DNA from: an uncultured Polyangiaceae bacterium
GTDB lineage: Bacteria > Acidobacteriota > Thermoanaerobaculia > Multivoradales > JAHEKO01
DNA length: 64,000 nt
Direction: 5' to 3'
NCBI GenBank assembly: GCA_964195975.1
Contig: CAXMQZ010000087.1
Span: 747-64,746, forward strand
Of this stretch, positions 20,327 through 50,596 are shown piece by piece; within the stretch, counting starts at the first letter, position 1; each line of letters begins with the position of its first letter. The notes below the pieces were generated by a model, which was not told the origin of the DNA, did no database searches, and saw only the letters and a list, made by a program, of their open reading frames with translations. Position numbers and translations under genes: made by a program.

Positions 20327-20332
20327 GACACA

Positions 20333-32943: not shown

Positions 32944-33093
32944 CACCACTCCTGGCCACCGCTGCGAGACACGCCGTCCCCACGACTCTGGCAGGTCCGA
33001 CCCTCTAGCAGGTTGAGGCGACGATATACTGGTCGAAGATCTGTCGTTGTTCAACGTTTGCCCAAATTATTCATGGGGGCTAGGAGGGACGAG

Positions 33094-33684
33094 ATGTTCA
33101 AAAGACCCTTATCATGGTTGCTTGCGCCTGTCGGCATCGTCGCACTGACCTTGCTGACAGGATGTGGTCCGTACAACAACTTGGTAGCGCTGGAGGAGGG
33201 CGTAGATACTGCTTGGAGCCAAGTCGAGAATGTCTATCAACGACGTGCCGATTTGATTCCCAACCTTGTAAACACGGTCAAAGGAGCTGCCGATTTCGAA
33301 CAGGACACGCTGACACAGGTTGTCGAGGCCCGCGCCAAGGTTGGACAAGTCAACTTCCAGGGGGCCCCGGACGCCGGGCAACTCCAGCAGTTTCAGGCCG
33401 CTCAAGACCAGCTGTCATCGGCCCTATCCCGCTTGCTAGTAGTCGTAGAGCAGTATCCCGACATCAAAGCGACCCAGTCGTTTCGTGACCTGCAGGCCCA
33501 ATTGGAGGGCACCGAGAATCGGATCGCTGTGGAACGGCGTCGGTTCAACGAGGCGACCCAGGTATACAACACCACGCGTCGGCAGTTCCCATCGGTTCTC
33601 TACGCCAAGGCTTTCGACTTCGAGCAAAAGCCGTACTTCGAGTCCAGTCCGGGTGCCGAAGAGGTTCCAGTAGTCGAGTTCTAG
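33094..33684 (+). CDS. lemA: LemA family protein
   Basis: N-terminal TM segment followed by a LemA core (..VENVYQRRADLIPNLVNTVKG.., ..QYPDIKATQSFRDLQAQLEGTENRIAVERRRFNE..). Confidence 0.8.
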   Translation: MFKRPLSWLLAPVGIVALTLLTGCGPYNNLVALEEGVDTAWSQVENVYQRRADLIPNLVNTVKGAADFEQDTLTQVVEARAKVGQVNFQGAPDAGQLQQFQAAQDQLSSALSRLLVVVEQYPDIKATQSFRDLQAQLEGTENRIAVERRRFNEATQVYNTTRRQFPSVLYAKAFDFEQKPYFESSPGAEEVPVVEF

Positions 33685-33695
33685 GGTCTCTCGAA

Positions 33696-34352
33696 TTGGC
33701 TGTGACCGATTTCTTCTCCGAGCAGGAACTGGAAGCCGTTCGAGCCGCAACCCTCGCGGCTGAGTCCCAGACCGGTGGTGAGTTGGTCTGCGTGATCGTC
33801 GAACGCTGCGACAGCTATGAAGCTTCCTGGTGGAAGGTTGCCACGCTCGGCGCCCTGGCCGGATCCATATTGGCCTCCCTTTGGTACTCATCGAGAGGTG
33901 GCTGGGGTGGACCGACGGCGTCGTGGATACTGCTTCCTCCGGTGACAGGCGCTGCGGTTGGCCTCTTGCTGGTCCTGATCGTGCCGTGGCTTCAGCGGCT
34001 TCTGATTCCAGCAGGAGTCATCGAGCGCCGAGTCGACCGTCGAGCTGCGGTGGCGTTTCTCGAAGAGGAGGTCTTTGCCACTCGCGATCGGACCGGAGTG
34101 CTGATCTTCTTGGCCCTATTCGAACATCAGATTCGAATTCTTCGCGACCAAGGTGTCGAAGACAAAGTCCCTCCAACCGCATGGTCTGAGATCGCAGACG
34201 ATTTGACTCGGGGTCTTCGATCCGGACATCCAGGATCGGCCCTCGTTCGTGCAATCGAAGCCTCCGGCAACCTGCTCACCAAAAGCGGCGTAGCGCGACG
34301 GACCGATGACCGTGACGAGTTGAGCAATGAGCCCAGACTCCACGATGAGTAG
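33696..34352 (+). CDS. TPM-domain-like membrane protein of LemA operon
   Basis: The N-terminus FSEQELEAVRAATLAAESQTGGELVCVIV resembles the TPM or DUF477 pattern. Two TM helices follow. Confidence 0.5.
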   Translation: MAVTDFFSEQELEAVRAATLAAESQTGGELVCVIVERCDSYEASWWKVATLGALAGSILASLWYSSRGGWGGPTASWILLPPVTGAAVGLLLVLIVPWLQRLLIPAGVIERRVDRRAAVAFLEEEVFATRDRTGVLIFLALFEHQIRILRDQGVEDKVPPTAWSEIADDLTRGLRSGHPGSALVRAIEASGNLLTKSGVARRTDDRDELSNEPRLHDE

Positions 34353-35280
34353 CCGTCGAGTGTGGCGACTGACCGCGCTGGTTGCTTGTGCTGTCGGATG
34401 GGGCTGGATCTCGCCCGCCGCAGGCAAGGAAGTTCCTTTTCTCTCCGGGCGAGTCAACGACCTGGCAGATCTCCTGTCTAGCCAAGCAGAGAACGATATC
34501 GAAATGCGGCTCGAAGCGCTCGAGACCGAGAGCGGAGCGCAGATTGCCGTGCTGACAATCCACAGTCTGGAAGGCGAGGTTCTAGAAGATTACAGTCTTC
34601 AAGTGGCCGAGACCTGGAAATTGGGTCGTGGACAATTCGACGACGGTGCATTGTTACTGATTGTCCGAGACGAGCGTAAGATGAGACTCGAGGTGGGTTA
34701 TGGCCTCGAGCCCATTTTGCCGGATGCCATCGCCAAACGTATCCTCGATACCGTACTTCAACCCCGCTTCCGTGAAGGTGATTTTGACGGCGGAGTGATC
34801 GCCTCGATCGATACTATCGCGGGTCTTGTCAAGGGTGATGGAACGTTGCCTCCACCCGCAATCGATCCAGCTGCCGGCAGCCGACGACATGGTCCCTCAA
34901 ACGCGATCGGCTTCCTCGTGTTCCTGGCAATTGTGGGGCTGTTCTCACTGCAGGCCCTATCCTCTCGAGGGTGTGCGGGTTGGGGATTGTATCTGTTCTT
35001 GCTGCCGTTCTGGATCTTCTTCCCGATCGCAATCTTCGGTAGACCGGGAGGCTATATCCCGGGAGTCCTTTGGATTGTCGGGTTCCCCTTGCTTTGGCTT
35101 GTGCTCCACCGCACCTCTGGCGGCAAGAAGTGGTTCGATCGCCACGATGGGGGTGGTGGTGGACCCCTCATCTTTGGCGGTGGTGGTGGTGGCTGGTCGT
35201 CTTCGGGAGGCGGTTTTGGTGGCGGATTCAGCGGTGGAGGTGGAAGCTTTGGCGGTGGCGGGGCCTCGGGCAGTTGGTAG
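34327..35280 (+). CDS. TPM-domain protein (YgcG-like) with Gly-rich C-terminal tail
   Basis: It has a signal peptide and a TPM core (..LEALETESGAQIAVLTIHSLEG...LLLIVRDERKMRLEVGYGLEPILPDAIAKRI..). These are followed by TM segments and a GGGGGxxGGGG tail. Confidence 0.75.
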   Translation: MSPDSTMSSRRVWRLTALVACAVGWGWISPAAGKEVPFLSGRVNDLADLLSSQAENDIEMRLEALETESGAQIAVLTIHSLEGEVLEDYSLQVAETWKLGRGQFDDGALLLIVRDERKMRLEVGYGLEPILPDAIAKRILDTVLQPRFREGDFDGGVIASIDTIAGLVKGDGTLPPPAIDPAAGSRRHGPSNAIGFLVFLAIVGLFSLQALSSRGCAGWGLYLFLLPFWIFFPIAIFGRPGGYIPGVLWIVGFPLLWLVLHRTSGGKKWFDRHDGGGGGPLIFGGGGGGWSSSGGGFGGGFSGGGGSFGGGGASGSW

Positions 35281-36725: not shown

Positions 36726-39170
36726 TTGAACAGCGCCCATCCATTCAGTTCCCGCCGAGCGGAGTTGGTCCACCTCGTCAATATCGTGGTGGTGGCGCTG
36801 TTTGCGACAACCCCGGTTGTGGCCCATATGCCACCAACGGAGGCCGCCAATCAGGCAAGCCAGGGCGCGATGATCCCCGGGCCCAATTCGACGCCACCCT
36901 TTCTTCGTCGCTATATCGATGTCGACTACGGTGGGAACGGAAAGCCGGGATGGGTCCATGCGGCGGACATGGACAGGGATGGCGACCTCGACATCGTCGC
37001 CGGTGGAGGCTTCGCCCTGTTCATCTATGAGAACGACGGCGAAGAAGGTGGCTGGAAGCGGTTTGGAAATCTCGACGTCTCCAACGCTATCGGTGCCAAC
37101 GGTGGAGAGCTCTATGATGTCGACAACGACGGGCATATCGATGTCGTTTCAGCCAAGTACCAGGACGATGTCGGCTGGTGGAAAAACCCCGGGCCCCCTC
37201 TCAGCAGCACTCCCTGGGATTTTTTCATCATTAGCACCGAGACTCGATACATGCACGACCTGATTCGTGTCGATATCGATGGTGATCAGGTCGCAGAGGA
37301 GTTCATTGCCGACCTGAATCAAGGCTACTGGAACGCCAGGATCACAATCAAATGGTTTCGCCCCGGCACTGATCCCCAACAGGCCTGGGAGCAACACACT
37401 ATCGAGGTCGATCGGCCCGAGGGTTCGCCCCATGGGCACTCGGGTCTCGATCTTGCGGACATCGACGACGACGGCCAATTGGATCTTGCCTATTCCAACG
37501 GCTGGTATAAGGGGCCGGCCGATCCGGCAGGGGTATGGACCTGGTACGAAGTCACAGACGAGTACGGCATCTCGAACACTCTTGCCCGGGATATGGATGA
37601 GGACACCGATCTCGATTTATTGATGGGCGCCGGTCACCATGGTCAGGGAGTCTATTGGTACGAGCAACCTGAGGATCCAATCGCAGGAGTCTGGACCAAG
37701 CACGATATCGACGCCTCGATCCATCACCCGGAGTGTCTACAGACGACCGACGACGGCAACGACGGTGACATCGACGTCGTAACCTGCAACCTCTTTTTTG
37801 GTGAGGATCCCGGAGAGCCCGATTGGTCGGAGGAAGTTCACGACATATTCATGTTTGAGAATCTCCCCGGAAAAAACAACTGGGACATGACCCTGATCAG
37901 CCCCAACTCCTTTCCCAGTCATCAACTACAGCTGAGCGATGTCAATCGGGATGGTCGACTGGATATCTTGAGCGAGTCGGCAGCACACTCGGTCATCAGC
38001 TACTACGAGAACGCCTTTGATCGCCTTCGACTCGACCTCGAAGTCGTCGACGAAACCTACCCGGGGAATGGCCGACCCGGCTGGTCGAGCACCGGGTACA
38101 TCGATGGCGACAACCTTCTCGATGTGATCGCTGGAGGCGGTGGAGCTATTCACTGGTATCGAGCACCCGATTGGACGCGATTCCCTATCGAGGTCATTTC
38201 CACCGCAGGCGGCAACGGGGGTCTCATCATGCAGGTCGACGACGATCCCTATCCCGACGTCGTCGCGGCACTGTTTGACGGCGATCTTGTCTGGTGGCGC
38301 AACCCCGGACCCGGTTCGGTAACCGGAGTTTGGACCCGTCACATCATTGACGGTGCTATCTCCGACTTCAACCACGATCTCGTCATGGGAAACCTAGACG
38401 AGGATCCCGACGAAGAGATCGTTGCCCTTTTTGTCGATGGGGGAGTCTTCTGGTACGACATCCCCGCCGATCCGTTGACCTCGCCGTGGCCCAGGACCAC
38501 CATCCTCAATACGATCAGCGACCCTTTTGTTGGACTGGCAATGTGCAATTTAGACGGTGATTCCGATCTCGACGTCGTGATCTCGAACCGCTGGTATGAA
38601 ACGCCGGCGAACCCCTCGACGCCGAACTGGGTTTCGCACCAACTCTTCAGCCAGAATGTTCAAAACGTCACTTGTGCTCAGGTCAACAGTGACGCCAGGA
38701 TGGATGTCGTCGCAGCCGAAGGATTTGTTCATCCGAATGGTCGTATTCTCTGGTCGGAGTCACCACCCGACCCGCGCAATGATTCCTGGGCTGAACATGT
38801 CATTTTGGATGGGCTTGATGGACCCGAGAACATCTGGGCCGGCGATCTCGATGGCGACGGCGACACCGATATCGTAAGTGGCGAAATGGGAACCTCGACC
38901 GGATGGGACGACTCTGACAGCAACCTTTTTATTCTTTTCGGACGCACCACACCAACTCTCGGTTGGGAGCGTCGAGATCAAGCCTGGAGCGTAGGCGTCA
39001 GCGCGCGGGTCAACCCATCCGATTTCGACACCGATGGCGATATCGACTTCGTCGCCGACGGCAACGCCGAGGGTCACATCTATCTCTGGCGCCATGTCGG
39101 GACCAACGCCTTTTTCAGCGACGGCTTCGAGACCGCCGACATGTCGGCTTGGACAGCCTTCCAACCGTAG
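36726..39170 (+). CDS. FG-GAP/VCBS-repeat beta-propeller protein
   Basis: At least 9 DxDxDGxxD(I/L/V)V repeats, for example DMDRDGDLDIV, DVDNDGHIDVV and DLDGDGDTDIV. Confidence 0.7.
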   Translation: MNSAHPFSSRRAELVHLVNIVVVALFATTPVVAHMPPTEAANQASQGAMIPGPNSTPPFLRRYIDVDYGGNGKPGWVHAADMDRDGDLDIVAGGGFALFIYENDGEEGGWKRFGNLDVSNAIGANGGELYDVDNDGHIDVVSAKYQDDVGWWKNPGPPLSSTPWDFFIISTETRYMHDLIRVDIDGDQVAEEFIADLNQGYWNARITIKWFRPGTDPQQAWEQHTIEVDRPEGSPHGHSGLDLADIDDDGQLDLAYSNGWYKGPADPAGVWTWYEVTDEYGISNTLARDMDEDTDLDLLMGAGHHGQGVYWYEQPEDPIAGVWTKHDIDASIHHPECLQTTDDGNDGDIDVVTCNLFFGEDPGEPDWSEEVHDIFMFENLPGKNNWDMTLISPNSFPSHQLQLSDVNRDGRLDILSESAAHSVISYYENAFDRLRLDLEVVDETYPGNGRPGWSSTGYIDGDNLLDVIAGGGGAIHWYRAPDWTRFPIEVISTAGGNGGLIMQVDDDPYPDVVAALFDGDLVWWRNPGPGSVTGVWTRHIIDGAISDFNHDLVMGNLDEDPDEEIVALFVDGGVFWYDIPADPLTSPWPRTTILNTISDPFVGLAMCNLDGDSDLDVVISNRWYETPANPSTPNWVSHQLFSQNVQNVTCAQVNSDARMDVVAAEGFVHPNGRILWSESPPDPRNDSWAEHVILDGLDGPENIWAGDLDGDGDTDIVSGEMGTSTGWDDSDSNLFILFGRTTPTLGWERRDQAWSVGVSARVNPSDFDTDGDIDFVADGNAEGHIYLWRHVGTNAFFSDGFETADMSAWTAFQP

Positions 39171-39178
39171 ATTGGAAC

Positions 39179-40186
39179 TCAGCGCATACTGTTGAGTCCG
39201 ACAAAGGTGCCACCGTTGCGGCGGCAAAGAATGCGCATGAGGGTGGCAAACCGGACGCCTGTAGTATCGGAGACGCCGGCGACCGTAAAGATAACCGGAA
39301 ATCCGATTGCGTGAATCCTCACCAAACGACTGCCTGATTTGTCGCTCTTGTTGATTCGATCGACGGTTCGCACCACCTCGTCGATGGATCGGCCAGTGAA
39401 CTCGTCACCAAACACGTAGATGCTCACCTTCTTGTCCGGAGCCGCAAAGGTCCTGATGGCTCGCGTAATCCCTTCGACCGGGCTACTGTTGCTAAAAACA
39501 CTCCAGCTGCGCAGGCGATCAAGAATCACTTTCCGGCGTGCCGGTGTATCGGGTATCCACTTTCCGGAGTAGCGCGAGAACATGTACTGGCCCATGTCGT
39601 TCATGACCTGCAAACCCTTGACCGTTGGATAGGCGTCCAGTACCTGCGTCATCTTTTGCTGAACCAGCGGCCAGGCATAGGTAAACATGCTGCCCGAAGT
39701 GTCGATCACGAAGATGATGTACTCGCTATCGACAGGAATTCCTCCGACTAGCTCCTGTTCGATCTTCCGCCTGCCGGTCTGCTGTTGAAGACGGAGCATC
39801 TCGGCTGTGAGATCCTGCTGAGCCGCCTCGAGCCGCCCTGCGATGATCTCACTCACAGCCGAGTCCTGGCTCGATGCGGCAAACTCGCCTTGGATCTCCA
39901 GTAGATCGCCTTTGAGACGTGCGAGCTTCTCCTGCTCTTTCGAGAGTTGTTCGATCCGGCCAGGAAGCTCTCGGTTCAAGATCGTGGTCTCTCCTCGAAT
40001 CTCGAAGAGCTCTTCTTGAAGTTTGGCTATCAACCCATCCAGATCGACTCGTGCCATTTCGATCGCACGGGGCTCGCCGATCTTAGTAAGGACAAGAAGC
40101 AACACAATGGCTCCAAATCCACAACAGATGACGTCCAGGAAGGAGAGACTGAAACCGTCCAGACCAGCCCTGTTTCTTTTTCTCAT
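39179..40186 (-). CDS. ExbD/TolR-like TM anchor + coiled coil + vWA domain protein (paralog 2)
   Basis: The N-terminus SLSFLDVICCGFGAIVLLLVL has an Asp in the ExbD/TolR position. It is followed by a long coiled coil and a vWA motif IIFVIDTSGSM. Confidence 0.6.
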   Translation of the reverse strand: MRKRNRAGLDGFSLSFLDVICCGFGAIVLLLVLTKIGEPRAIEMARVDLDGLIAKLQEELFEIRGETTILNRELPGRIEQLSKEQEKLARLKGDLLEIQGEFAASSQDSAVSEIIAGRLEAAQQDLTAEMLRLQQQTGRRKIEQELVGGIPVDSEYIIFVIDTSGSMFTYAWPLVQQKMTQVLDAYPTVKGLQVMNDMGQYMFSRYSGKWIPDTPARRKVILDRLRSWSVFSNSSPVEGITRAIRTFAAPDKKVSIYVFGDEFTGRSIDEVVRTVDRINKSDKSGSRLVRIHAIGFPVIFTVAGVSDTTGVRFATLMRILCRRNGGTFVGLNSMR

Positions 40187-41307
40187 GGCCAGTCGTCCGA
40201 TGGGCTCAAGAACGACCCTCGCGTGGCCATAGCAAGCCGCCAGAAGGCACTCGATGCTTCGGGGTCTCCCTCCATCGGGAAGAGGATTACGTTGACGGGA
40301 ATGCTCTTGGGTAGCTGATCAAAAGCTCGATTGAACAGCTTGAGTCGCTGTTTGGCGCTGACCTTGTTGGATTTCGGGGGGGTGCGTCCCATCGTAGGTA
40401 GGCCATCGACCAGCAGCACGATATTGTCCGGTTTGGGCTGGAGCGTTGCCACTGATTCGAATGCCCTGTACAGATTGGTACCCTTGTCCGGTGGGGTGAT
40501 CCGGAGGCGCTCGACCGCCTCGTCCAAAAAACCGGGATCGTTGGCTCGCAACCAGGTCCCTTTGGTGTCGGGGATCAAGGATTCAACCCTCTCATTGAAC
40601 GTATAAATCTGAAACTGACTGTCCTCGGGCATTTGGGCCGTTAACCAGTCGACGGTAGCAACAGCCTGACGCCACTTGCCAGACAGAATTTTCTGACGGT
40701 CAGGGAGGTTCCGTCGCCGAATCACATTGACCACAGTAGAGCCCAACATGCTTGCGGAGCTATCCACCAAGATTAGGATCCTGTTTCCACCTACTTTCAA
40801 TCCGGTCAAATACTGACGAGTCCCGTCGCCAATGACCGTGCGGATCTGATCACCTCCTGAGTCTCCTTCGGTCACCGCTAGGGCGGCAAATCGCCGAGTA
40901 CTCTCCTCGAGCGATTTCAAATCGGCCATCAACTTGTTGAGATGCTCCTGCTGCGCAAGACTGAGGTTCTCGTGTGTAGCGAGCTCGACTTGAAGGGCCT
41001 CGATCTCTTCGATGAGCCGTCTAGACAGCCCTTGCGCGATAACTTTTTTCTTGACGATGTCTCGAAGCGAGTTGCGAAGCTCGACGAGTCGCTCATGACC
41101 TTCCAGCACTTCGTAGTCCAGCCGGTCCACTTCGGCCTGCAGGTCTTCGGTCATCCTGTCGGATCTCAGACCCACCGAGGCATTGATCACCATGAACAAG
41201 AGCACCACGGAGCCAAAGCCGCACGTCATCGCATCTAGAAACGACAGGCTGAAGACGCTCGCTTGACCTCTTGACGCTCGTCTAGCCATCGTTCTCCAAC
41301 ACGACAA
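40183..41307 (-). CDS. ExbD/TolR-like TM anchor + coiled coil + vWA domain protein (paralog 1)
   Basis: The N-terminus FSLSFLDAMTCGFGSVVLLF is followed by a coiled coil and the vWA motif ILILVDSSASM. Confidence 0.6.
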   Translation of the reverse strand: MSCWRTMARRASRGQASVFSLSFLDAMTCGFGSVVLLFMVINASVGLRSDRMTEDLQAEVDRLDYEVLEGHERLVELRNSLRDIVKKKVIAQGLSRRLIEEIEALQVELATHENLSLAQQEHLNKLMADLKSLEESTRRFAALAVTEGDSGGDQIRTVIGDGTRQYLTGLKVGGNRILILVDSSASMLGSTVVNVIRRRNLPDRQKILSGKWRQAVATVDWLTAQMPEDSQFQIYTFNERVESLIPDTKGTWLRANDPGFLDEAVERLRITPPDKGTNLYRAFESVATLQPKPDNIVLLVDGLPTMGRTPPKSNKVSAKQRLKLFNRAFDQLPKSIPVNVILFPMEGDPEASSAFWRLAMATRGSFLSPSDDWP

Positions 41308-42691
41308 TCAACGGAATTTCGATACCAGGGCTTCCCAAACCGAGACGATCTCCTGCTTCGGCTTCACAAGTTCCGTCGATCGGTCGGTCGTTGAGGTAGG
41401 TCCCATAGGTACTGTGGTCCTCGATCAGAACCCGATCACCATCTCGGCGGATATGGCAGTGAGATCTCGAGACACCAGTGGTGTCTCCCGTCAGGTTTAC
41501 ACCCCGTTGATCACCAGCCAGGGCCACACCCAACCAGAACGGTTCCTCCCCAATTGGATAGGCGGTGCCACCGTAGACCAGGTGAGTCGGTGGACGCCTC
41601 GCCAGAGTCGGGGCTGTTGTGACGATCGGCTGTTCTCCAGGCTGTGTCGCCACGATATCGACCGTCGGTTTACCCAGTCGAACCACAAAAGGAAGCTCAT
41701 CACCTTCGGCCTCGATTTGGAGGCGATTGACCAGAGCACCAACCGCCGCTGCTCCTTCGGGCAGGACGACGACGTCGGTTCCACTCAGTTCGGCCAACCT
41801 GGATTGCAGCCCTGGAATCGCCGCAGCGCGCGAAGTCAACAGGATCTGCGGCGCGTCTCCTGACGCCGTAAGCGCTCCTGCCAGATTCGAGACTGTTCTG
41901 AGTTGATCTTGCACAGCTGCGATGAACTGACTCCTCGCAACGTCGATCGTATAGATCCGACCTCCATACTCGAGACTCACCTCTGCGACGTCTTCGTCTC
42001 TCAACATGTCCAGCCAAGCCGGCAAGCTGTCGTAGAGAGCCTGCTCGCTGGCTGCGTTGTGCAAAGGGTCGAAACGGGTACTGCGCACAAACTGCCCTGC
42101 GATGAGCTTCGCCCACAGGTCCTGCATCGTGGCAAGACCAACAGCCCCGCTCTCTTGGACCCGCTGGCGGACAAGGCCCGAAGTCTGATCCATCTCGGTC
42201 CAGACAAACCGATGTAGAAGAATCTCCAGATGAAGTATCCGATCGGCGTTCGAGTGACCAGCAACAGATGCGAGCGCGCTATCTACCAGCCCGGAGACAG
42301 GCATCCCGGCGGATCGGGCGATGCCGAGCAGCAGGCCTAGCTGCCAGGTCAGAAACGACCCCGGTACGGCCAGCAACATGCCCTCGACCCCGTCGCCGTC
42401 ACGAGTTGCACTGACAGCCTCCTTCGACAAAGCTTCGAGGTGTCGGTGAACCAGATCCGCCTGAGTGAGCTGTTCGGGGAATGGCCGAGGCAGGGAGTCG
42501 GTACCCAGACTATCCCAGAAGTCATTCAGCGAGCGACGCGGGTTGAGCCGCGCCTGGGCTCTTGCTTCTTGGCCAACAACCACCGATGTGCCGTCCAAGA
42601 GAGCATAACCAGGACTTGGGCCCACGATCAGCCCCTGGCCGTCCGAGATCAAAATGCCCGGGTCGGTAAGCTCGATCGCCAGAATAGACAC
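41282..42691 (-). CDS. Hsp70/actin-fold (possibly catalytically degenerate) protein with C-terminal FHA domain
   Basis: The N-terminus AIELTDPGILIS...VVVGQEARAQARLNPRRSL resembles DnaK GIDLGTTNS...VGQPAKRQAVTNP. The C-terminal FHA signature is GVSRSHCHIRRDGDRVLIEDHSTYGTYLNDRPI. Confidence 0.55.
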   Translation of the reverse strand: MSILAIELTDPGILISDGQGLIVGPSPGYALLDGTSVVVGQEARAQARLNPRRSLNDFWDSLGTDSLPRPFPEQLTQADLVHRHLEALSKEAVSATRDGDGVEGMLLAVPGSFLTWQLGLLLGIARSAGMPVSGLVDSALASVAGHSNADRILHLEILLHRFVWTEMDQTSGLVRQRVQESGAVGLATMQDLWAKLIAGQFVRSTRFDPLHNAASEQALYDSLPAWLDMLRDEDVAEVSLEYGGRIYTIDVARSQFIAAVQDQLRTVSNLAGALTASGDAPQILLTSRAAAIPGLQSRLAELSGTDVVVLPEGAAAVGALVNRLQIEAEGDELPFVVRLGKPTVDIVATQPGEQPIVTTAPTLARRPPTHLVYGGTAYPIGEEPFWLGVALAGDQRGVNLTGDTTGVSRSHCHIRRDGDRVLIEDHSTYGTYLNDRPIDGTCEAEAGDRLGLGSPGIEIPLIVVLENDG

Positions 42692-42741: not shown

Positions 42742-43554
42742 TCAGCTTCTTGTCTCCCCGGCTATTTGAAGATGTCGAATGAGGTTTCGGTCGAGATAGT
42801 TCTCCGTTTCCAGCACCAACCTCTCCTGTTGAAGCTGCAGCTGATGCAGCAAGAACATCAACACGATGCTTATGAGTAGAGCGACAAAAGTCGAGTTGAA
42901 CGCTACCCCCAGGCTCTGGGTAACACCTGCAATATCTCCTTCGACCGCCTTGTGGGCCTGACCCAGGGCCTCACCGATTCCCCGCACTGTTCCTAGAAAG
43001 CCTATCGAAGGGATGGCCCAAGCAATATAGCGAACCATCGACAACTCGGAATCCAGTCGCTCTGACTCGGCATTGACGATTGCATGGGCGGTTGTGGAGA
43101 CATCTTGAATGTTGCGCGTGGCACCAAAGCGATCCAATGAAGCCAGCAATGCCCTGGGAAGAAGATAGTACTGTTCTGACTCCGGTAGCGACTGAATCTG
43201 CCGCGCGTACTCTCGCGCATCTTCCGGAAGGATCTTGGTTCCGTCAGCGAGAAGCACCAACTCCTCTTGCAACTGTTTGTGCTCCTTGGCGGTCTCGATT
43301 CCTTTGTACACCATGATCGCAATCGCCCAAAACATCAGGACAAAACAAGCCTCTTGCTCGAAATCTCGAATAACCACCCAGACGGATCGTTCTTGCACAT
43401 AGGATGGGTCGACCTGCATCAGCGCTGTCTGCTCCGCCAGAATCACAGCAGCGCGAGGTCGAACCACAATCACATAGAAAGCGTGGACGACGATCAGCGA
43501 CACCGCTAGCGATAGGGCTTGGTAAACGAACTCGACCGGGTAGTTCTTTTTCAT
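42742..43554 (-). CDS. MotA/TolQ/ExbB-family proton-channel protein
   Basis: Three TM helices with the conserved YIAWAIPSIGFLGTVRGIGEALG and ...STFVALLISI... signature. Confidence 0.75.
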   Translation of the reverse strand: MKKNYPVEFVYQALSLAVSLIVVHAFYVIVVRPRAAVILAEQTALMQVDPSYVQERSVWVVIRDFEQEACFVLMFWAIAIMVYKGIETAKEHKQLQEELVLLADGTKILPEDAREYARQIQSLPESEQYYLLPRALLASLDRFGATRNIQDVSTTAHAIVNAESERLDSELSMVRYIAWAIPSIGFLGTVRGIGEALGQAHKAVEGDIAGVTQSLGVAFNSTFVALLISIVLMFLLHQLQLQQERLVLETENYLDRNLIRHLQIAGETRS

Positions 43555-43567: not shown

Positions 43568-43843
43568 TCAGATATCCACAGGAAAGGAAACCGAGCTGCC
43601 AGCCGGCAACTTCTCGGTCGGAACAAAAACCTTCAAAGACTCGGTGGGCCGATCTTGCTGTGACTCCTCGTCCCCACTCTCCTCTTCCGGCGCGCCGCTG
43701 GCCTCAGAGTCCGGTTCCTGCTCGGGGGTGGCTTCGACTTGCTCCGATTCTGACCCGGTTTGGGCCACGGACGGAGAGTCCAGCGTCCACAGCCAACCTG
43801 CCATGACTACCGCGGTGAATAGGACAACGACGATCAATTTCAT
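43568..43843 (-). CDS. small TM-anchored acidic, disordered protein (hypothetical)
   Basis: The 91 aa ORF sits between operon genes with 13-14 bp spacers. It has an N-terminal hydrophobic helix followed by an E/S/D-rich region. Confidence 0.35.
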   Translation of the reverse strand: MKLIVVVLFTAVVMAGWLWTLDSPSVAQTGSESEQVEATPEQEPDSEASGAPEEESGDEESQQDRPTESLKVFVPTEKLPAGSSVSFPVDI

Positions 43844-43857: not shown

Positions 43858-46311
43858 CTATTCAGCAAATCGGGCCACGCGAAAGCCGACATCGGGTCGA
43901 GCTTTGTTGCCATAGTCCCGATAGCTCAGCCTGAGCTCGGTTATTGTCGAATCCATCCAACTCGAACCTCGAATGACACGATAGTCCCCCTCCGCCGGCC
44001 CCAAGGGGTCGACATCAGGTCCTTGCGTCGTCGGTGGCGGTATCGAGTAGTAGTCCTGCACCCACTCGGCGACATTACCGCCCATGTTCTTGACCCCGAC
44101 ATCGTTGGCGTCGAAGCTGTCAACTGGTGCTGTCGCTGGATATCGGTCGTTGTAACCCGAAAGTGTCTTTTGGAGCATCTCAGCTGCCGATTGATCGCCA
44201 TAGTTACCCGATCCTGATGGTACCGGCAACGAATCTCCCCAGGGGAACTTGAGCGCCTGCTGTCGACCAGCAAACCGAGCGGCCCAGGCCCACTCGGCTT
44301 CCGTTGGCAAACGATACCCGGTATTGAACGGTTGCACGAGGACGAATGTGCCACCCTCTCCAGTATAGGCCTTGGGAAGCGAGTCCTGTTCACTCAACCA
44401 GTTGCAAAACCTCACGGCGTCCTCCCAGGTTACTCCAACCACGGGGTGGTCATCTTTTTCCAGACTTGCGCTCTCCGCCCTTCCAGATCGATGACTCGGC
44501 TGAAACTTCTTGAACTGCCGATTGGAGATCTCGCGAGCACCGATGTAGAAAGCTCGTGTAAGCTGAACATCGCGCAGCGTCTCATTGGCCCTGCGGCCCG
44601 GCTCGCGTCGCGACGCGCCCATTCGAAACGAGCCCGGCTCGATCAGCACCAGCTCCTGACCCAGCGAATTACGAAGTGTCGCTGGTGTGGACGCCCTGCG
44701 AACCTCCTCGGGTGTTCTAAGTGTCACCCGAATCTGTTGCGGGAAGCCCGGACGAGGTGTAATGGTCTGCCGAAAGGTCTCGAAACCCTCCTTTTCAACT
44801 ACGATCTCGTGCGGTATGGCTTGCAAACGCAGCGTCTGGTTTGCCCCACCTCTCGATTCGCCATCGACAATGAGCTCTGCATCGGCTGGCCTGCCATCGA
44901 TCTCGATCTCGCCAAATAGGGGTACCAGCTCGACAGTCACCTCGTGTCGTTTTCCGGACACTATTTCGACCGACTCGTTCGAGGCTTCGAAACCCAGCTT
45001 GGATAGACCGATCTCATATGACTTACCTGGCTTGAGCTCCAGCTTCAACGGAGTCTGTCCGGCATATTCGCCATCGATCGACACCGTTGCCTCTCGAGGC
45101 TGACTCGCCAGAACCAAGATTCCATCGCTAGGTTGTAAGACGATTGATGGCAGTGACTGCGGTACATTCGCCTGGACCAGCAGCTGACTCCGATACGATT
45201 TGTACCCTCTCAGACTCACTTCCACCTTTCGACTTCCAGCAGCCACATCGGCTACCACCGGTGTCTTGCCGACCGACATGCCATCAATTTGAATCGTGGC
45301 TCCGGTCGGTTGTGATTTGAATTCGACCGCGGCCCAATTCGGAGTCAAATCAACCGACAAATCGAAGATCGCCCCCGCGCCCTCCACCGGCACCGTAGTC
45401 GAGAACGGGACGTAACTCGGATGAATGATTTCAACAAGGTGGTTGCCCTCCGCCAGCGGCACTGGATCGATTGGTGTTCGGCCGACCGACTTGCCATCGA
45501 CCAGCACCTCTGCGTCACCGCTGGGACGGGCCGTTATGACAAGCAGACCTGGCATCTTCTCTAGCGTGTACTGATAGCTCTGACTAGCCTCACGCGTTAC
45601 TTCGAGTGGTGCTGCCAAAGGAAGATAGCCCTCCTTTTCGAGCCGCACTTGGTATTCGCCCGGGCGAAGAAGATAGCGACCACCCAGCTCGATCTTCAAC
45701 CGAGTTCCGTCGACCGAGACTCGATCCGCCGGCGGATCGCTCGAGATCTCTACAGCCCGGGCGGTAAACAGGAACCAGGCCGCAGAACCCAAAAGCACCA
45801 AACTTGCAAGAACCACTATTCTTGCAAGACTCGGCTTCTTCCTTCTGGCTCGCGTTCGGTCAATCGAAGCCGGCGTAAACTCCACTGGGCTTACTCGCGT
45901 GTCTATCTCATGATCGGCACCCTTTTCCGGCCGAGATCTCGCCTGAACGAGGGGTGGGTCGGTCTTTATCTCAGGGGGTCGATGCGCTATCTCGAAATGA
46001 AAGCCGTTCTCACGTTGGGACACCGAGATCTCACTTTGCCCCAGTCGAAGAATGTCTCCGCTACGCAGCCACTGCGACGCCGATAACGGTGCACCATTAC
46101 AGATCACGACCACATCGCCATCCATGGGTTGGACAAAGAGGTCGCCTCCCTCAAACCCCAGAATGGCCAGCGGTTTGTCGCCGGAATAGCCTGGGATGCG
46201 GATGTCGCTCTCGGGGCCACCTAGATGTAAGGGGAGCTCGTCGGACCGAAACCTGTCCTCTCCATCTGCGTGAACAACCACGATGGCTGTACTCAAATCT
46301 TCTCCTCGCAC
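43858..46311 (-). CDS. FHA - TM - multi-PEGA - FGE-sulfatase (formylglycine-generating-enzyme-like) domain protein
   Basis: An N-terminal FHA domain (..GDILRLGQSEISV..) and one TM helix are followed by at least 5 PEGA-like repeats (..VDGKSVGRTP.., ..IDGMSVGKTP.., ..IDGEYAGQTP..). The C-terminal FGE-sulfatase domain reads RMGAS...HPVVGVTWEDAVRFCNWLS...YRLPTEAEWAWAA...GNVAEWVQD...GFRVARF. Confidence 0.75.
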   Translation of the reverse strand: MRGEDLSTAIVVVHADGEDRFRSDELPLHLGGPESDIRIPGYSGDKPLAILGFEGGDLFVQPMDGDVVVICNGAPLSASQWLRSGDILRLGQSEISVSQRENGFHFEIAHRPPEIKTDPPLVQARSRPEKGADHEIDTRVSPVEFTPASIDRTRARRKKPSLARIVVLASLVLLGSAAWFLFTARAVEISSDPPADRVSVDGTRLKIELGGRYLLRPGEYQVRLEKEGYLPLAAPLEVTREASQSYQYTLEKMPGLLVITARPSGDAEVLVDGKSVGRTPIDPVPLAEGNHLVEIIHPSYVPFSTTVPVEGAGAIFDLSVDLTPNWAAVEFKSQPTGATIQIDGMSVGKTPVVADVAAGSRKVEVSLRGYKSYRSQLLVQANVPQSLPSIVLQPSDGILVLASQPREATVSIDGEYAGQTPLKLELKPGKSYEIGLSKLGFEASNESVEIVSGKRHEVTVELVPLFGEIEIDGRPADAELIVDGESRGGANQTLRLQAIPHEIVVEKEGFETFRQTITPRPGFPQQIRVTLRTPEEVRRASTPATLRNSLGQELVLIEPGSFRMGASRREPGRRANETLRDVQLTRAFYIGAREISNRQFKKFQPSHRSGRAESASLEKDDHPVVGVTWEDAVRFCNWLSEQDSLPKAYTGEGGTFVLVQPFNTGYRLPTEAEWAWAARFAGRQQALKFPWGDSLPVPSGSGNYGDQSAAEMLQKTLSGYNDRYPATAPVDSFDANDVGVKNMGGNVAEWVQDYYSIPPPTTQGPDVDPLGPAEGDYRVIRGSSWMDSTITELRLSYRDYGNKARPDVGFRVARFAE

Positions 46312-48350
46312 CGCACGACCACCGGATCCATTCTTCCCTCTGGGGAGACCTTGAATACACGTCGCACATCGCGGTACCCCTCACGGCTCCCTATCGCGGT
46401 GTAGGAGCCCGGTCGCAACTCGAGCTGACGTTGTTCGAACCGACCGAGCGACCCGACCCGGTAGACCACCACATAAGTGTAGTTGTCAGACACCAGTCGA
46501 ATCTGGACCGGAGTAGAAGCCACCTCGATCACCTGCTCGAGCTGAGTGATCTGGCGTCGGATTCTGGGGCCCTCCGGGAGAGCATCTCTGGCTTGGCCCA
46601 ATAGATCGATGGCCTCATTCAGCACCGGCTGAGTGGAGAATCGATCCGGATGCATGATGTGAAAATCGAGCCGATCGCTCAACTCGGCTCGCTCGGATGC
46701 GAGGCGCTGCCCTTCGATGGCAAAGCGGATCGCTGGGTCGAGCTTCAGGACCGCCGCGTACTCGGTCTCCGCTTCTCGCCAATGCTCGGTACTCGCAAGC
46801 TCCCGCGCCCTTTCGCGATGACTTTCAATCGCTGCTAGACGCATCTGTTGTTCGGCCCTGGCCAGACCATCGGCTGCCTCTCTGGAGTCGGGTCGGACCG
46901 CCAGCGCTCTCTGAAACGCTGCCTGTGCCTCCGAGAAGCTGTCTCGTTCGAGCGCACGCAGGCCAGCCGACATTGCCTCTGAAAAGGCCTTTACACCCTC
47001 GGAACTGGGTCGGCGATTCTGAGGAACCGACAGACGAGGCGGCTCCGGCAACGGCGTTGGCCTGGCAGACGACAGATCTTGATCGGGTGCGGGTGGCTCA
47101 GCTGCAGAAGCAACGACAGGAGAGGGTCGGGCCTCGATCGTCTCAATCGCGTCGCCATCCCCTGAGCTCGGCCCTGTTGACGGTCCTGGGGGCGGCTTGG
47201 CCAGCCCAGCGGGCCCGGACCTACCTTCCTCGGAATCAATTCGTATCGGTTCTCCAGCCTCGATCTCCTCTCCTACATCTTCAGCCGCCTCCGACCCGGG
47301 AACGGCGACCTGAGGATTCTCGCGCACCCAGTTGGGCAGAAGTACAAACACGGCCACCGCCAAGAGCCCAAGAAATCCAAATGCCAAGACGGTCATGATC
47401 CGGCCAGAGCTCCAGCGACTACCGACCCGCCCTTTCGTACGCTGAGCCGAAATAGATGCGGTAGCTATTCGCGATTCCAACGCACGAGGTGGAGCGCTGA
47501 TTCGAATGGGTGCTACCGGACGACCCTCGGGCTTCGCATCCGTGGTCGAGATCACGGCGAGTACTTCCTTCAAGGCTTGTCGAACAGATGCCATGTCCGA
47601 AGGCCTGTCTGAGGATCTTCGAGACAGCATGCTAGCGACCAGGTCATCAGCTTCGACAGGTAGCGAGCAGATCGAAGAGAGTCTGGTCGCCGTGCGACCA
47701 TAGCGGTCCTCGATCGAAGCGAGATCCGAAAAGACGGACTTTCCGGCGATGAGCTCGAACAACAGAGTGCCCAGCCCGTAGATGTCATCCGAGATGGCTG
47801 CAGGCTCCCCGCTCGATTGCTGTGGACTCTGATTGGTCTTCGAACCGCCACCAACCAGCTGCAAGTCTGTGGCGCTCGGTTCGAGCAGACCTGCTATTCC
47901 AAAATCACCGACGCGTAGCCGCCCTTGCTTGTCGAGCAGAATATTGCTGCACTTCAGATCGCGATGAATGACTCCGGCGGCATGCGCGTATTCCAGTGCG
48001 TCAACGACTCCACCTACTTTTTTCAGAATAGCAGGCAGAGAACCACCGAGTAGCTGCCCCATATCCCCGCCATCGAGATACTCAGCCGTGTAGAAGATCT
48101 CCTGATCGACTTCATGGAGCTCATAGACTCGGACGATGTTTTCGTGAACGAGTTTTTTCGCTATCCGAAACTCTTGCCGCAACAGATCAGCCGAGGTCCC
48201 CGAGGCATTGCCCCGCGCCAACTTGATCACCAGGTCGATATCGAACTCGGTGTCATGGGCGAGCCAAACCTCGCTCATACCCCCCGAGCCGATGCTTCGA
48301 ATCGCCTTGAAACGGGTACCGAGATGGCGTGAGCTACTCAAGTCAGGCAT
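46293..48350 (-). CDS. Hanks-type Ser/Thr protein kinase with TM segment and C-terminal TPR-like/unknown extracytoplasmic domain
   Basis: Kinase motifs GSGGMSEV, HRDLKCSNILL and DFG are present. A TM helix (IMTVLAFGFLGLLAVAVFVLL) is followed by a Pro-rich linker and helical repeats. It overlaps the downstream gene by 19 bp. Confidence 0.85.
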   Translation of the reverse strand: MPDLSSSRHLGTRFKAIRSIGSGGMSEVWLAHDTEFDIDLVIKLARGNASGTSADLLRQEFRIAKKLVHENIVRVYELHEVDQEIFYTAEYLDGGDMGQLLGGSLPAILKKVGGVVDALEYAHAAGVIHRDLKCSNILLDKQGRLRVGDFGIAGLLEPSATDLQLVGGGSKTNQSPQQSSGEPAAISDDIYGLGTLLFELIAGKSVFSDLASIEDRYGRTATRLSSICSLPVEADDLVASMLSRRSSDRPSDMASVRQALKEVLAVISTTDAKPEGRPVAPIRISAPPRALESRIATASISAQRTKGRVGSRWSSGRIMTVLAFGFLGLLAVAVFVLLPNWVRENPQVAVPGSEAAEDVGEEIEAGEPIRIDSEEGRSGPAGLAKPPPGPSTGPSSGDGDAIETIEARPSPVVASAAEPPAPDQDLSSARPTPLPEPPRLSVPQNRRPSSEGVKAFSEAMSAGLRALERDSFSEAQAAFQRALAVRPDSREAADGLARAEQQMRLAAIESHRERARELASTEHWREAETEYAAVLKLDPAIRFAIEGQRLASERAELSDRLDFHIMHPDRFSTQPVLNEAIDLLGQARDALPEGPRIRRQITQLEQVIEVASTPVQIRLVSDNYTYVVVYRVGSLGRFEQRQLELRPGSYTAIGSREGYRDVRRVFKVSPEGRMDPVVVRCEEKI

Positions 48351-48371: not shown

Positions 48372-49610
48372 TCACTGCAAAGACGAGGTCTCGATGGCCA
48401 GCTCCGTGTCGGCGTTGGGGTCACCAGCAAGTCCGGTCTCCGTGGCATAGATTTGTTGAAGCAGACCTCGCCACTTGGCGTACTGGTTTTCGAGGTTACC
48501 GGTAAGGCGAACGGTCTCGCCCTCCACCTCCACCACCAACGGGGCGACCTCGGCATCGAACGAAACCCCGAGCTCCCTGATGGCTTCGCGATGCATCTTG
48601 GCTTCTTTTCCGGTTGCTATTCCGCTTCGCAGCACCATGATGCCACCGATCAGGGCAGCATCCCTGGCCACCGCCTCCAGACCGCTTCCTGGACTGGCTA
48701 CGACAGCTCCAAAGATCGCCAGTGCACCAATGATTTTGCGATTTCGAGCCTTTTTCTTGATCTCGTCCAATGCTATCTGCTCTTCGTAGGTGTAAGAGCG
48801 CCAGTCGTCGTAGGGAACCTCCATCGAAGCAGAGAAGTTGGCGTAGTTCTCATTGAGCGTGTCGATGAACATGTAGTCGCGCTCTCGTATCTGGACGATT
48901 CGGCCCATCATGGGATCGTCTTGCGCAGGCAGCTTCGCTACCGTATAGCGACCCTTCCTGTTGATCTCCAGATAGTCGTCGTAGAGCGTGGGTGCCAAGC
49001 CTCTTGCAAAACGCAGCTCGGAGATCCGTCTAAGCACCAGAAGATCTTCATTCTTCAGTTTTCTCCGAGTCTCGAGAAGCTCATTGGCTATGGCTCCATA
49101 GAGCGCCTCGAACGGCTCACGTGTCTCCAGTTCCTCGCTCTTCGGACCATAGGCGCGAGTGTCAGCCTCCTGTTTGAATCGCTTCTCCAGCCACTCGCGT
49201 CCGGATGAATCGGTGGCGCTTACCTCGACGACAAGCACTTTTCCATTCGACTTGATGATTCGACCGGTCACCGTCAGATCAACCGATGCGGTGTCTTGAG
49301 GCACGACCCGAACGGCACCCCATTGCCCCGTAGACTCGAGAGTCTCTTTCAAGCGCATGGGAATGTAGCGAGCCTCAGACTTTCGAACCTCAGGAAAGAC
49401 CTCGACCTGGTACTTCTTGTCTGTCGTCGGTTCCTCGGAGAGACCCGGATCAAAGAGCTCGATCCCCACATCGAGAAGGCTGTCCTCGGGTATGTCCTCG
49501 CGGGCCTGGATGGCCTTTGTGCTGGTCGTAGCGCTGGTTGCCGGACCGGATAGACCGGTAAGGAAAAGAGCTGCTGCCAGAAAAGTGCATCGAAGCTGAA
49601 GTCGTTTCAT
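48372..49610 (-). CDS. secreted hypothetical protein (signal peptide, C-terminal hydrophobic segment)
   Basis: The 412 aa ORF is in the operon. It has a signal peptide (MKRLQLRCTFLAAALFLTGLSGPATSA). Confidence 0.5.
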   Translation of the reverse strand: MKRLQLRCTFLAAALFLTGLSGPATSATTSTKAIQAREDIPEDSLLDVGIELFDPGLSEEPTTDKKYQVEVFPEVRKSEARYIPMRLKETLESTGQWGAVRVVPQDTASVDLTVTGRIIKSNGKVLVVEVSATDSSGREWLEKRFKQEADTRAYGPKSEELETREPFEALYGAIANELLETRRKLKNEDLLVLRRISELRFARGLAPTLYDDYLEINRKGRYTVAKLPAQDDPMMGRIVQIRERDYMFIDTLNENYANFSASMEVPYDDWRSYTYEEQIALDEIKKKARNRKIIGALAIFGAVVASPGSGLEAVARDAALIGGIMVLRSGIATGKEAKMHREAIRELGVSFDAEVAPLVVEVEGETVRLTGNLENQYAKWRGLLQQIYATETGLAGDPNADTELAIETSSLQ

Positions 49611-49636: not shown

Positions 49637-50596
49637 TCAGCTCTTGCTGCTACCGGACTTGTAGTCCCGATACTCTTCCCACAGTTTCTCACGAAGCTCC
49701 GGATCGTCCTCGGTCATGGCTGCCTCTCGAAGCTGTCGCGCGATGATGTCGTCGTCGCTTCCATCACCGACATCCGATGGCACCCGGCCACCACCACCGC
49801 CTCCGGCAGATCCGCCACTCGCTTCACCTTCCTGCTCGGCCACTTCTTGTTGCTCGGCTTGTTCCGCGGCACCACCCGACTCCTCTCCTTCAGCCCCGGC
49901 CTCAACATCGGCGATCGCAGTGTCAGCATACTCTCCAGCACCCGAGTATCCTCCGCTTTCGGCTCCTGAGGCGGCCTCCTCCGCAGCGGCCGCGCTCGCC
50001 TCTTCCCGGCGCTCCTTTTCGAGAAGCTCCTGTTCTCGGAGCAACTCGCCATCGAACTCGGCAAGCGATCGCGCCAACTCTTCATCGAGAGCCGCGGTCC
50101 GCTCGCCGGCGGTCTGCGATCCTTGACGGATCGCGCCTCCAGAGGCTGCAGCCCTGGCATCATCGGGTACGGCGGGGCCACTTGGCTCGCTCGGCTCCCC
50201 AGAGGGATTTTCAGAACCCGGATCGCTCATAGAGGCTTTCTCAGGTTGACCACCCTCGGGCCCAGCAGCACCGTCCTCTCCAGAGGACATTTCATCGCTG
50301 CCGCCTTCAGCCGACTCGGCGCCCTCTCCAGGGGGCAGTACCTGCTCGACCTGAGAGGTTTCGGCTCCCCCTCCCGATTCCGAATCCGAAGGTGGCTGGC
50401 TGGGGTCAGAGGGGCTGGATGTCGGAGATGGAGGTGGAGGCGTCGAAGGTGTTTGCGGGGCCGACGGCGAGGGTGGAGTCGGCGGCGGCATCGATGGCGA
50501 AGGAGGCTGCGTCGAGGTACTCGAACAGCCCACGAAGGCCATCGCATGACCGATCAACGCTGCTACCAACAGTAGTTTTCTTGGCTTGACTCTCAT
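49637..50596 (-). CDS. lipoprotein with Pro/Ser-rich and acidic low-complexity regions
   Basis: Starts at MRVKPRKLLLVAALIGHAMAFVGC (lipobox-like). It has PPTPPSPSAPQTPSTPPPPSP and E/A/G-rich tracts. Confidence 0.5.
   Translation of the reverse strand: MRVKPRKLLLVAALIGHAMAFVGCSSTSTQPPSPSMPPPTPPSPSAPQTPSTPPPPSPTSSPSDPSQPPSDSESGGGAETSQVEQVLPPGEGAESAEGGSDEMSSGEDGAAGPEGGQPEKASMSDPGSENPSGEPSEPSGPAVPDDARAAASGGAIRQGSQTAGERTAALDEELARSLAEFDGELLREQELLEKERREEASAAAAEEAASGAESGGYSGAGEYADTAIADVEAGAEGEESGGAAEQAEQQEVAEQEGEASGGSAGGGGGGRVPSDVGDGSDDDIIARQLREAAMTEDDPELREKLWEEYRDYKSGSSKS

Follow-up and report, generated by a model that had tools for sequence, protein, structure and literature searches.

The window analyzed here is a stretch of 64,000 nucleotides from the genome of an uncultured Polyangiaceae bacterium placed in the Acidobacteriota (contig CAXMQZ010000087.1, positions 747 to 64,746), and its minus strand carries a conserved cluster of about eight genes. 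This report concerns the two tandem genes at the downstream end of that cluster, designated vWA-1 and vWA-2, and their possible work with a nearby TolQ/ExbB-like membrane protein. The two genes and the parts of their products, in window coordinates, are the following:

39179 to 40186, minus strand: vWA-1 gene, 335 amino acids (aa) with a basic tail, a transmembrane (TM) helix, a predicted coiled coil and a von Willebrand A (vWA) domain, as given in the list of open reading frames (ORFs)
39182 to 39739, minus strand: vWA-1 vWA domain, residues 150-335, with the metal ion-dependent adhesion site (MIDAS) motif D162-x-S164-x-S166 at 39689-39703
39779 to 40084, minus strand: vWA-1 predicted periplasmic heptad helix, residues 35-136, about 15 nm long if straight
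40085 to 40153, minus strand: vWA-1 TM ('trans-pore') helix, residues 12-34, with the Asp18 codon at 40133-40135; the helix of the AlphaFold2 (AF2) model starts at residue 12
40183 to 41289, minus strand: vWA-2 gene, 368 aa from an ATG at 41289; the mechanical ORF extends to a TTG at 41307
40186 to 40782, minus strand: vWA-2 vWA domain, residues about 170-368, with the MIDAS motif D176-x-S178-x-S180 at 40750-40764
40870 to 41172, minus strand: vWA-2 predicted heptad helix, residues about 40-140
41185 to 41253, minus strand: vWA-2 TM helix, residues 13-35, with the Asp19 codon at 41233-41235

The true start of vWA-2 is almost certainly the ATG at 41289, since the resulting 368 aa match the homologs (363-368 aa, nearly all 368) and this ATG overlaps the stop codon of the upstream gene. 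In turn, the stop codon of vWA-2 and the start codon of vWA-1 share the sequence ATGA, and the two genes are translationally coupled. A BLASTP comparison of the two products gave 27% identity over the first 170 residues (E 2e-9), and comparison of their ortholog families by hhalign gave a probability of 99.6% (E 8e-24, 317 columns). By these alignments vWA-1 and vWA-2 are full-length paralogs, and the tandem pair described in an earlier reading of this DNA from its letters alone (hereafter the sequence-only reading) was borne out, with both ORFs present and related along their entire length. The vWA-1 family is large: homologs at 70-99% identity were found, and 1375 relatives were counted at E<=1e-3 and 344 at E<=1e-30. 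These relatives are representatives of 50%-identity clusters, and the vWA-1/vWA-2 pattern is not a product of chance.

Both proteins begin with a basic tail (MRKRNRAGLDG in vWA-1 and MARRASRGQAS in vWA-2), followed by the motif (F/V)(S)LSFLD(V/A)xxCGFG(A/S)(I/V)VLL, of which the two instances are GFSLSFLDVICCGFGAIVLL and VFSLSFLDAMTCGFGSVVLL; the basic stretch and F(S)LSFLD motif that the sequence-only reading had placed at the N-termini were found in both. An alignment of 87 diverse vWA-1 orthologs, at 32-64% identity to the query, showed that D18 and C22 are invariant and that F16, L17, F24, G25 and A26 are at least 90% conserved, and an alignment of 29 vWA-2 orthologs showed L18, D19, A20, M21, T22, C23, G24 and G26 to be invariant. 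For a wider survey one genome per species was scanned with vWA-1, which returned at least 80 loci at 51-71% identity, and 81 loci from several phyla were examined. The Asp was seen in both paralogs at all of these except L076, which is probably a damaged locus, and the vWA-2 TM motif was visible in about 78 genome loci. Inspection of the vWA-1 and vWA-2 helices revealed no His and no SHLS/His motor-binding motif of the TonB/TolA type. The N-terminal tails of the two families carry a net charge of +2.4 to +2.6 and the 15 residues past the helix one of -0.9 to 0.07 (for vWA-1 itself, +2.4 versus -0.9); under the positive-inside rule these charges indicate an N-in orientation that leaves the vWA domain outside, as in ExbD, TolR and MotB.

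Beyond the membrane, the AF2 model of vWA-1 (predicted local distance difference test score, pLDDT, 88.8) has an unbroken helix over residues 12-136, then a disordered linker (137-155) and an alpha/beta domain (156-330). The family-averaged hydrophobicity of the stalk has its spectral maximum at exactly 3.5 residues in the vWA-1 and vWA-2 families alike (power 77 for vWA-2), a value equaled by 0 of 2000 shuffles, and this periodicity is characteristic of coiled coils and not of simple helices. The TM helix and stalk of the two paralogs align in hhalign as one ungapped block, vWA-1 residues 4-136 against vWA-2 residues 5-137, as would be needed for a heterodimer with parallel, in-register helices. 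The sequence-only reading had proposed about 150 aa of coiled coil followed by a vWA domain; the heptad helix and the vWA domain held up, and the length of the stalk had to be corrected to about 100 residues.

The C-terminal domains of both proteins are, by sequence comparison and model, Rossmann-like alpha/beta vWA folds with a MIDAS metal site of the form DxSxS...T/S...D. The DxSxS motifs noted previously in both heads proved to belong to sites that are complete and invariant in the ortholog alignments: D162/S164/S166 with S234 and D261 in vWA-1, and D176/S178/S180 with T271 and D295 in vWA-2. When the domains were checked with vWA hidden Markov models (HMMs), as the sequence-only reading had suggested, vWA-2 passed the Pfam cut-offs (VWA_2, 33.8 bits against a cut-off of 27, E 5.7e-8, residues 177-302; VWA_3, E 2.6e-6), but vWA-1 stayed below the Pfam vWA threshold at 14.3 bits, and its fold was recognized through hhalign and Foldseek instead. 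In the latter comparison the alpha/beta domain of the AF2 model resembled solved vWA structures, namely ITIH1, alpha2delta-1, the bacterial 4fx5 and ANTXR2, with E values of 7e-7 to 1e-4.

The putative pentameric partner of the pair is encoded upstream, on the same strand:

42742 to 43554, minus strand: MotA/TolQ/ExbB-family membrane protein (MotA-like protein), 270 aa from an ATG at 43554, with Thr189 at 42988-42990 and Thr222 at 42889-42891

The MotA-like protein matched the Pfam family MotA_ExbB (PF01618) with an E value of 1.5e-14 and 54.3 bits (cut-off 22.9). Its nearest relatives are TolQ and ExbB; the NCBIfam TolQ model matched at 1e-7, far below equivalog cut-offs, and phmmer related it to the TolQ chains of the cryo-EM structure 8odt at E 0.008. 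By these models neither the TolQ nor the ExbB equivalog family includes it. An alignment that took in both E. coli proteins showed that T189 and T222 are the equivalents of T145 and T178 of TolQ and of T148 and T181 of ExbB, and both positions are Thr in 71 of 71 orthologs. The usual companion of such a protein was not found: the seven cluster proteins gave no ExbD/TolR, MotB or OmpA-like match in Pfam and NCBIfam, and the 81 loci gave no tblastn match to E. coli ExbD, TolR or MotB. Since the cluster genes abut, there is also no room for an unrecognized gene of 130 aa. vWA-1 and vWA-2 themselves have no OmpA/MotB peptidoglycan-binding domain in Pfam or NCBIfam, their C-terminal domain being a vWA domain instead. 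Two paralogs with an invariant TM Asp fit the dimer of a 5:2 motor.

The sequence-only reading had called the helix ExbD/TolR-type and had placed its Asp exactly where ExbD D25 and TolR D23 sit, naming the equivalence with ExbD D25 beforehand as the point on which the idea could be refuted. The outcome was mixed, in that the geometry agreed and the sequence statistics did not. Seven residues separate the last cytoplasmic acidic residue from the Asp in ExbD (D17...D25), TolR (E15...D23) and vWA-1 (D10...D18) alike; the uncharged stretch past the Asp is 18 residues in ExbD, 20 in TolR, 16 in vWA-1 and 22 in vWA-2; and the local strings PFIDVM, PLLDVL and SFLDVI are similar. In the searches, the first 60 residues of both proteins gave zero Pfam matches at E<=10, ExbD included, and the full-length proteins gave no match to ExbD/TolR PF02472 at the same threshold. 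A profile of 58 diverse helices, run against 177,635 PDB sequences at E<=10, recovered no chain of ExbD, TolR, MotB, PomB or ZorB, its sole match being an ankyrin repeat at E 2.4. The same 58-helix HMM scored 4.8, 5.2 and -0.8 bits against the N-termini of ExbD, TolR and MotB of E. coli MG1655, with p about 0.009, 0.004 and 0.16, respectively, from 2000 shuffles each; the full-sequence scores are marginal, and we did not use them as evidence because the register of the local alignment leaves the Asp residues unpaired. In an ungapped, Asp-anchored position-specific scoring matrix (PSSM) the Asp-Asp register ranked 1 of 116 for TolR, 1 of 282 for MotB and 3 of 115 for ExbD, with scores that were negative and no better than those of composition-matched shuffles (p 0.40, 0.06 and 0.17, respectively). 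The Asp is thus equivalent to ExbD D25 and TolR D23 in depth and topology only, and the claim of homology for the helix was not upheld. Sequence comparison neither demonstrates nor rules out common ancestry of the vWA helices with the ExbD/TolR helix.

The genetic context of the pair is strongly conserved. Locus counts were determined by tblastn with the window proteins, and many loci are cut by contig ends. The gene order, nearly everywhere, is 412-aa secreted protein, TPR/C-terminal-domain protein, PEGA-FGE protein, small ORF, MotA-like, Hsp70-like, vWA-2 and vWA-1, and the counts alongside vWA-1 were the following:

vWA-2: 80 of 81 loci
MotA-like protein: 74 of 81 loci, adjacent
PEGA-FGE protein: 68 of 81 loci
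Hsp70-like protein: 68 of 81 loci, between MotA-like and vWA-2
TPR part: 63-65 of 81 loci
412-aa secreted protein: 39 of 81 loci, many being cut by the locus edge

In seven loci without the Hsp70-like gene, MotA-like, vWA-2 and vWA-1 are directly adjacent, which marks this triad as the core of the cluster. The carriers include Acidobacteriota (Ca. Sulfomarinibacteraceae, Thermoanaerobaculia and Vicinamibacteria), Desulfobacterales (Desulfobacterota), Rhodospirillales (Alphaproteobacteria), one metagenome-assembled genome (MAG) of the Verrucomicrobia, and, among the Gammaproteobacteria, Halieaceae, Microbulbifer echini, Pseudoalteromonas denitrificans, Seongchinamella unica, Porticoccus, Steroidobacteraceae and Woeseiaceae. 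The closest locus among those returned belongs to Ca. Sulfomarinibacteraceae (71% identity), and the retention of 51-71% identity between phyla points to selection on the whole architecture.

The remaining components of the cluster in the window are:

41282 to 42691, minus strand: cytoplasmic protein with an Hsp70/DnaK nucleotide-binding domain (NBD)-like part (residues 1-340) and an FHA domain (residues about 365-465); AF2 pLDDT 91
43568 to 43843, minus strand: small secreted protein, 91 aa, with a signal peptide and an acidic low-complexity linker
43858 to 46311, minus strand: bitopic PEGA-FGE envelope protein, 817 aa, with an N-terminal cytoplasmic domain, a TM segment, five PEGA domains and an FGE-sulfatase domain
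46293 to 48350, minus strand: Ser/Thr kinase with a TM segment, TPR and a C-terminal beta-rich domain (Pfam Pkinase 1.5e-34, TPR)
48372 to 49610, minus strand: secreted 412-aa protein with a signal peptide, no Pfam match and no assigned fold

The Hsp70-like product matched Hsp70 NBDs in Foldseek at E values of 1e-17 to 2e-19 and the Pfam FHA family at 7.4e-10, and is without a substrate-binding domain. Its Gly-rich phosphate-binding loops look divergent by eye (AIELTDPG and HLEILLHR, as against DLGTT and DLGGGT), and for this reason it may not hydrolyze ATP. The small secreted protein had zero family matches in Pfam and NCBIfam. Its C-terminus, F.P(S/T)E......V(S/P)FP(V/I/T)DI-COOH, is strongly conserved and ends ...SFPVDI in the window, with the remainder of the protein variable and acidic; the corresponding intergenic gap holds an equivalent small ORF with the same C-terminal motif at 65 of 66 loci (L001-L084). 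The protein could be the acidic ligand of the MIDAS heads. The PEGA-FGE protein matched Pfam PEGA at 7e-60 and FGE-sulfatase at 5e-48, and the GldK/PorK model at 9e-36, below its cut-off. Its position directly upstream of the motor gene echoes the order gldK-gldL-gldM, which may reflect generic fold similarity. The first 110 residues of the protein look FHA-like by eye, an impression left unconfirmed by Pfam, which gave no match, and by the PDB, where the best match was the FHA domain of FhaA at E 0.23.

The kinase and FHA parts vary together. Only the TPR/C-terminal periplasmic part of the TPR protein (residues about 455-685) is conserved across loci, and a kinase domain was detected in 12 of them (L006, L014, L022, L034, L036, L042, L046, L056, L078, L079, L081 and L083). 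By approximate tblastn counts, FHA on the Hsp70-like protein occurs in 12 of 12 kinase loci versus 16 of 42 without a kinase, and the N-terminal domain of the PEGA-FGE protein in 8 of 12 versus 9 of 42. The phospho-signaling layer appears to be an accessory module gained and lost as a unit; it is absent from most loci, and on that ground we treat it as accessory.

The wider surroundings in the window were also recorded. Upstream of the cluster, a predicted lipoprotein (49637 to 50671, minus strand; lipobox AFVGC) has a very long acidic low-complexity region rich in Pro, Ser, Gly and Glu and was detected at a corresponding place in only 3 further loci. Next upstream are genes for an ATP-grasp protein (ATPgrasp_ST), an inactive-transglutaminase/7TM protein and a putative ATP-dependent Zn protease (50775 to 53750, minus strand), a triad seen beside the vWA cluster in none of the other loci examined, which reach only 8 kb upstream. 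On the other side, an 814-aa FG-GAP/VCBS-repeat protein (36726 to 39170, plus strand) is convergent with the vWA genes, an adjacency that is not conserved in the other loci examined. Further away lie a LemA gene and two TPM-domain genes, the second with a Gly-rich C-terminal tail (33013 to 35280, plus strand), and a complex I (NADH:quinone oxidoreductase) operon with its membrane subunits (13738 to 22569, minus strand). A strong positive plus-strand AT skew (0.17-0.27) at 14-22 kb coincides with this operon and is an ordinary composition effect.

Comparison with known ion-driven systems places the cluster near several of them. It resembles ExbB-ExbD and TolQ-TolR in having a partner of the same Pfam family with both pore Thr residues and a putative dimer subunit that is predicted to be N-in and single-TM, with the Asp at the same depth by residue spacing; it has no ExbD/TolR periplasmic domain and no third subunit of the TonB/TolA type. 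Where ExbD and TolR have a small periplasmic domain, the window proteins have a coiled coil of about 100 residues and a vWA head, and their dimer is predicted to be a heterodimer of paralogs. With MotA-MotB the cluster shares a presumed pentamer-plus-dimer plan, a TM Asp near the cytoplasmic end, the best-scoring Asp-anchored register and a periplasmic domain on a linker, whereas it lacks a plug, an OmpA-like domain and a flagellar context, and its MotA-like protein is nearer to TolQ/ExbB. The likeness to GldL-GldM and PorL-PorM lies in a presumed 5:2-type motor, a long periplasmic stalk directed toward outer-membrane partners and an upstream gene with an FGE fold (GldK there, PEGA-FGE here). 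The order of FGE-fold gene, motor and stalk common to GldKLM and the window is an organizational resemblance only; no sequence relation to GldM was found, and the window cluster contains no GldN or type IX secretion system genes. GldL, and not the dimer, bears the key acidic residue of GldLM. The AglR-AglQ-AglS complex of Myxococcus gliding joins a TolQ-like protein to two different TolR-like subunits, a heteromeric axle; AglQ and AglS are canonical short TolR-like proteins, and the vWA protein CglB is a separate outer-membrane lipoprotein, unfused to the axle.

Taking as a starting point the observed domain anatomy, invariant key residues, N-in topology, paralogy and conserved operon, we consider it rather probable that a vWA-1/vWA-2 heterodimer replaces ExbD/TolR/MotB within a TolQ/ExbB-like pentamer, making a 5:2-type proton motor whose MIDAS heads pass on force. 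The Asp-bearing helices of the heterodimer would lie within the pentamer, their two Asp residues turned toward the Thr ring, and proton flow through the Asp/Thr site would turn or ratchet the dimer relative to the pentamer. The heptad helices, being of equal length, would form a parallel shaft of about 15 nm carrying the two vWA heads into the periplasm, where these may take hold of a partner in the periplasm or outer membrane by an acidic residue coordinated to the metal, passing force on to that partner. Four products of the cluster are candidates for this part: the co-conserved PEGA-FGE protein, the 412-aa secreted protein, the TPR protein and the small protein ending in ...SFPVDI. In the acidobacterial lineage of the window, the Ser/Thr kinase on the TPR protein and the cytoplasmic FHA domains may add a phospho-switch as a means of regulation. 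A wider proposal, which we offer tentatively and regard as possible but doubtful in its full extent, is that the cluster of about eight genes would encode an undescribed trans-envelope machine, in which a 5:2 proton motor drives a coiled-coil heterodimer axle whose integrin-like MIDAS heads clamp an acidic group, either the C-terminal carboxylate or Asp of the small secreted protein or an acidic side chain on another envelope protein from the cluster, with Ser/Thr phosphorylation and FHA binding acting as a switch in some lineages. Phospho-regulation of this kind is not known to us from any 5:2 motor, and the literature searched yielded no example.

The same motor could also run with its roles reversed, the vWA heads serving as a static anchor in the manner of MotB and the pentamer turning to work on the cytoplasmic Hsp70-NBD-like, actin-fold protein. 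The Hsp70-like gene, in its fixed place between MotA-like and vWA-2 at most loci, speaks for such an output, as does the general knowledge that MotAB and ZorAB anchor themselves by the periplasmic domain of the B subunit and deliver their output in the cytoplasm (similarity to Zorya here being weak), and PEGA and vWA domains are typically binding rather than catalytic modules. The seven loci that keep the core triad without the Hsp70-like gene argue against a cytoplasmic output, the MotA-like protein is nearest to TolQ/ExbB, whose output is periplasmic, and most of the co-conserved genes encode periplasmic or envelope proteins; on balance we judge the reversed arrangement unlikely. A different kind of account dispenses with ion-driven mechanics altogether: the vWA proteins would be membrane-tethered periplasmic scaffolds or receptors of a BatA/BatB-like or integrin-like kind within a kinase/FHA signaling complex, the Asp would serve helix assembly or cation binding, and the TolQ-like protein would be a channel or scaffold only. 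Paired, TM-anchored vWA proteins are generally known from BatA/BatB, the cluster does contain signaling parts, and homology of the helix to ExbD/TolR could not be demonstrated, all of which would suit this account. It sits poorly with the absolute invariance of the Asp in both paralogs and of both pore Thr residues in the partner, leaves the missing ExbD/TolR partner unexplained, and gives a central part to kinase and FHA domains that most loci lack; moreover, Pfam searches of the proteins and their neighbors found no N-terminal TM domain of BatA and no MoxR or DUF58 genes. We therefore regard it as distinctly improbable, more so than a reversal of roles.

Least probable of all, and to our minds very much so, is a Zorya-type anti-phage defense in which a MotAB-like complex senses perturbation of the envelope. 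Searches with PADLOC gave a weak match of the MotA-like protein to ZorA (E 2e-4, 18 bits, covering the MotA core only) and matched the kinase to defense-kinase models, which reflects generic kinase similarity. The other cluster proteins had no PADLOC match, there is no long tail of the ZorA kind and no ZorC or ZorD, and the surroundings are of a housekeeping nature, as with the complex I operon. Identity of 51-71% and fixed synteny across phyla are also unlike the patchy, fast-evolving pattern of defense islands. The MoxR-vWA/ternary conflict systems (Kaur et al. 2020) were checked separately, and the architecture of vWA-1 and vWA-2 is not among them.

Several points weigh against the reading of the pair as the axle of a proton motor with heads that pass on force. 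The position of TolQ E173 and ExbB E176 is Val in the MotA-like family. Significant sequence similarity of the helix to ExbD, TolR or MotB was not found by Pfam, HMM or PSSM. In the Verrucomicrobia MAG, the locus L050 (8001-9002) holds a lone vWA-1 ortholog at 55% identity with its motif intact, and no MotA-like or vWA-2 gene lies within 8 kb on either side, so its partners must be encoded elsewhere in that genome unless the contig is chimeric. The motor could do its work on the periplasmic or the cytoplasmic side, with the heads as force output or as anchor, and no experiment on any family member is reported in the literature searched.

Judged from the published description, the window pair is an acidobacterial member of a kind of protein already predicted by others, the TPH-vWA proteins. 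These were described as TM-tethered, occurring 'predominantly in heterologous pairs' and tightly linked to tolQ homologs without tolR/exbD (Mol Biol Evol 2025, PMC12204202). Models made with AlphaFold3 (AF3) in that study place a conserved pair of helix Asp residues inside the Thr ring of a TolQ-like pentamer, and the family was seeded on Idiomarina (loihiensis) and found mainly in Proteobacteria and Verrucomicrobia (PMC12204202). The helix Asp, the pentamer Thr, the absence of an SHLS/His motif and the overlapping taxa (Proteobacteria and Verrucomicrobia) are common to the published family and the window, and the difference in source is that the seed is from Idiomarina and the window pair from the Acidobacteriota. 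We assign the pair to this kind because each testable feature was found: the Asp helix, the vWA fold, the pairing, and the linkage to a tolQ-like gene without tolR, exbD or motB. Idiomarina itself is absent from the loci returned (at least 80) and from the cluster names, and the related Alteromonadales/Cellvibrionales Pseudoalteromonas denitrificans and Microbulbifer echini carry the cluster. The suggestion in the sequence-only reading that a vWA domain driven by a proton-powered stator would be a new effector type has accordingly been anticipated in print. The section on TPH-vWA in PMC12204202 makes no mention of PEGA-FGE, TPR, Hsp70-NBD/FHA or kinase-fusion proteins or of the small proteins ending in ...SFPVDI, and no other paper describing the vWA-1/vWA-2 family was found in the literature searched. 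What appears to be new beyond that study is the larger operon, the Hsp70-NBD partner, the co-varying kinase/FHA layer, the small ...SFPVDI protein and the negative result on homology of the helix.

If the proposed motor is real, it would add a further functional class, the fourth or fifth, to the 5:2 ion-driven motors already known (flagellar, Ton/Tol, gliding/type IX secretion and Zorya), and this would be one whose very axle bears an adhesion head that depends on metal. The family ranges widely, through Acidobacteriota and numerous Proteobacteria from marine and soil habitats, and its very strong conservation suggests that it probably serves a general, as yet unnamed function of the cell envelope. 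Together, the fixed operon, the C-terminal peptide of the small protein and the kinase/FHA layer turn a brief prediction into one that can be tested directly.

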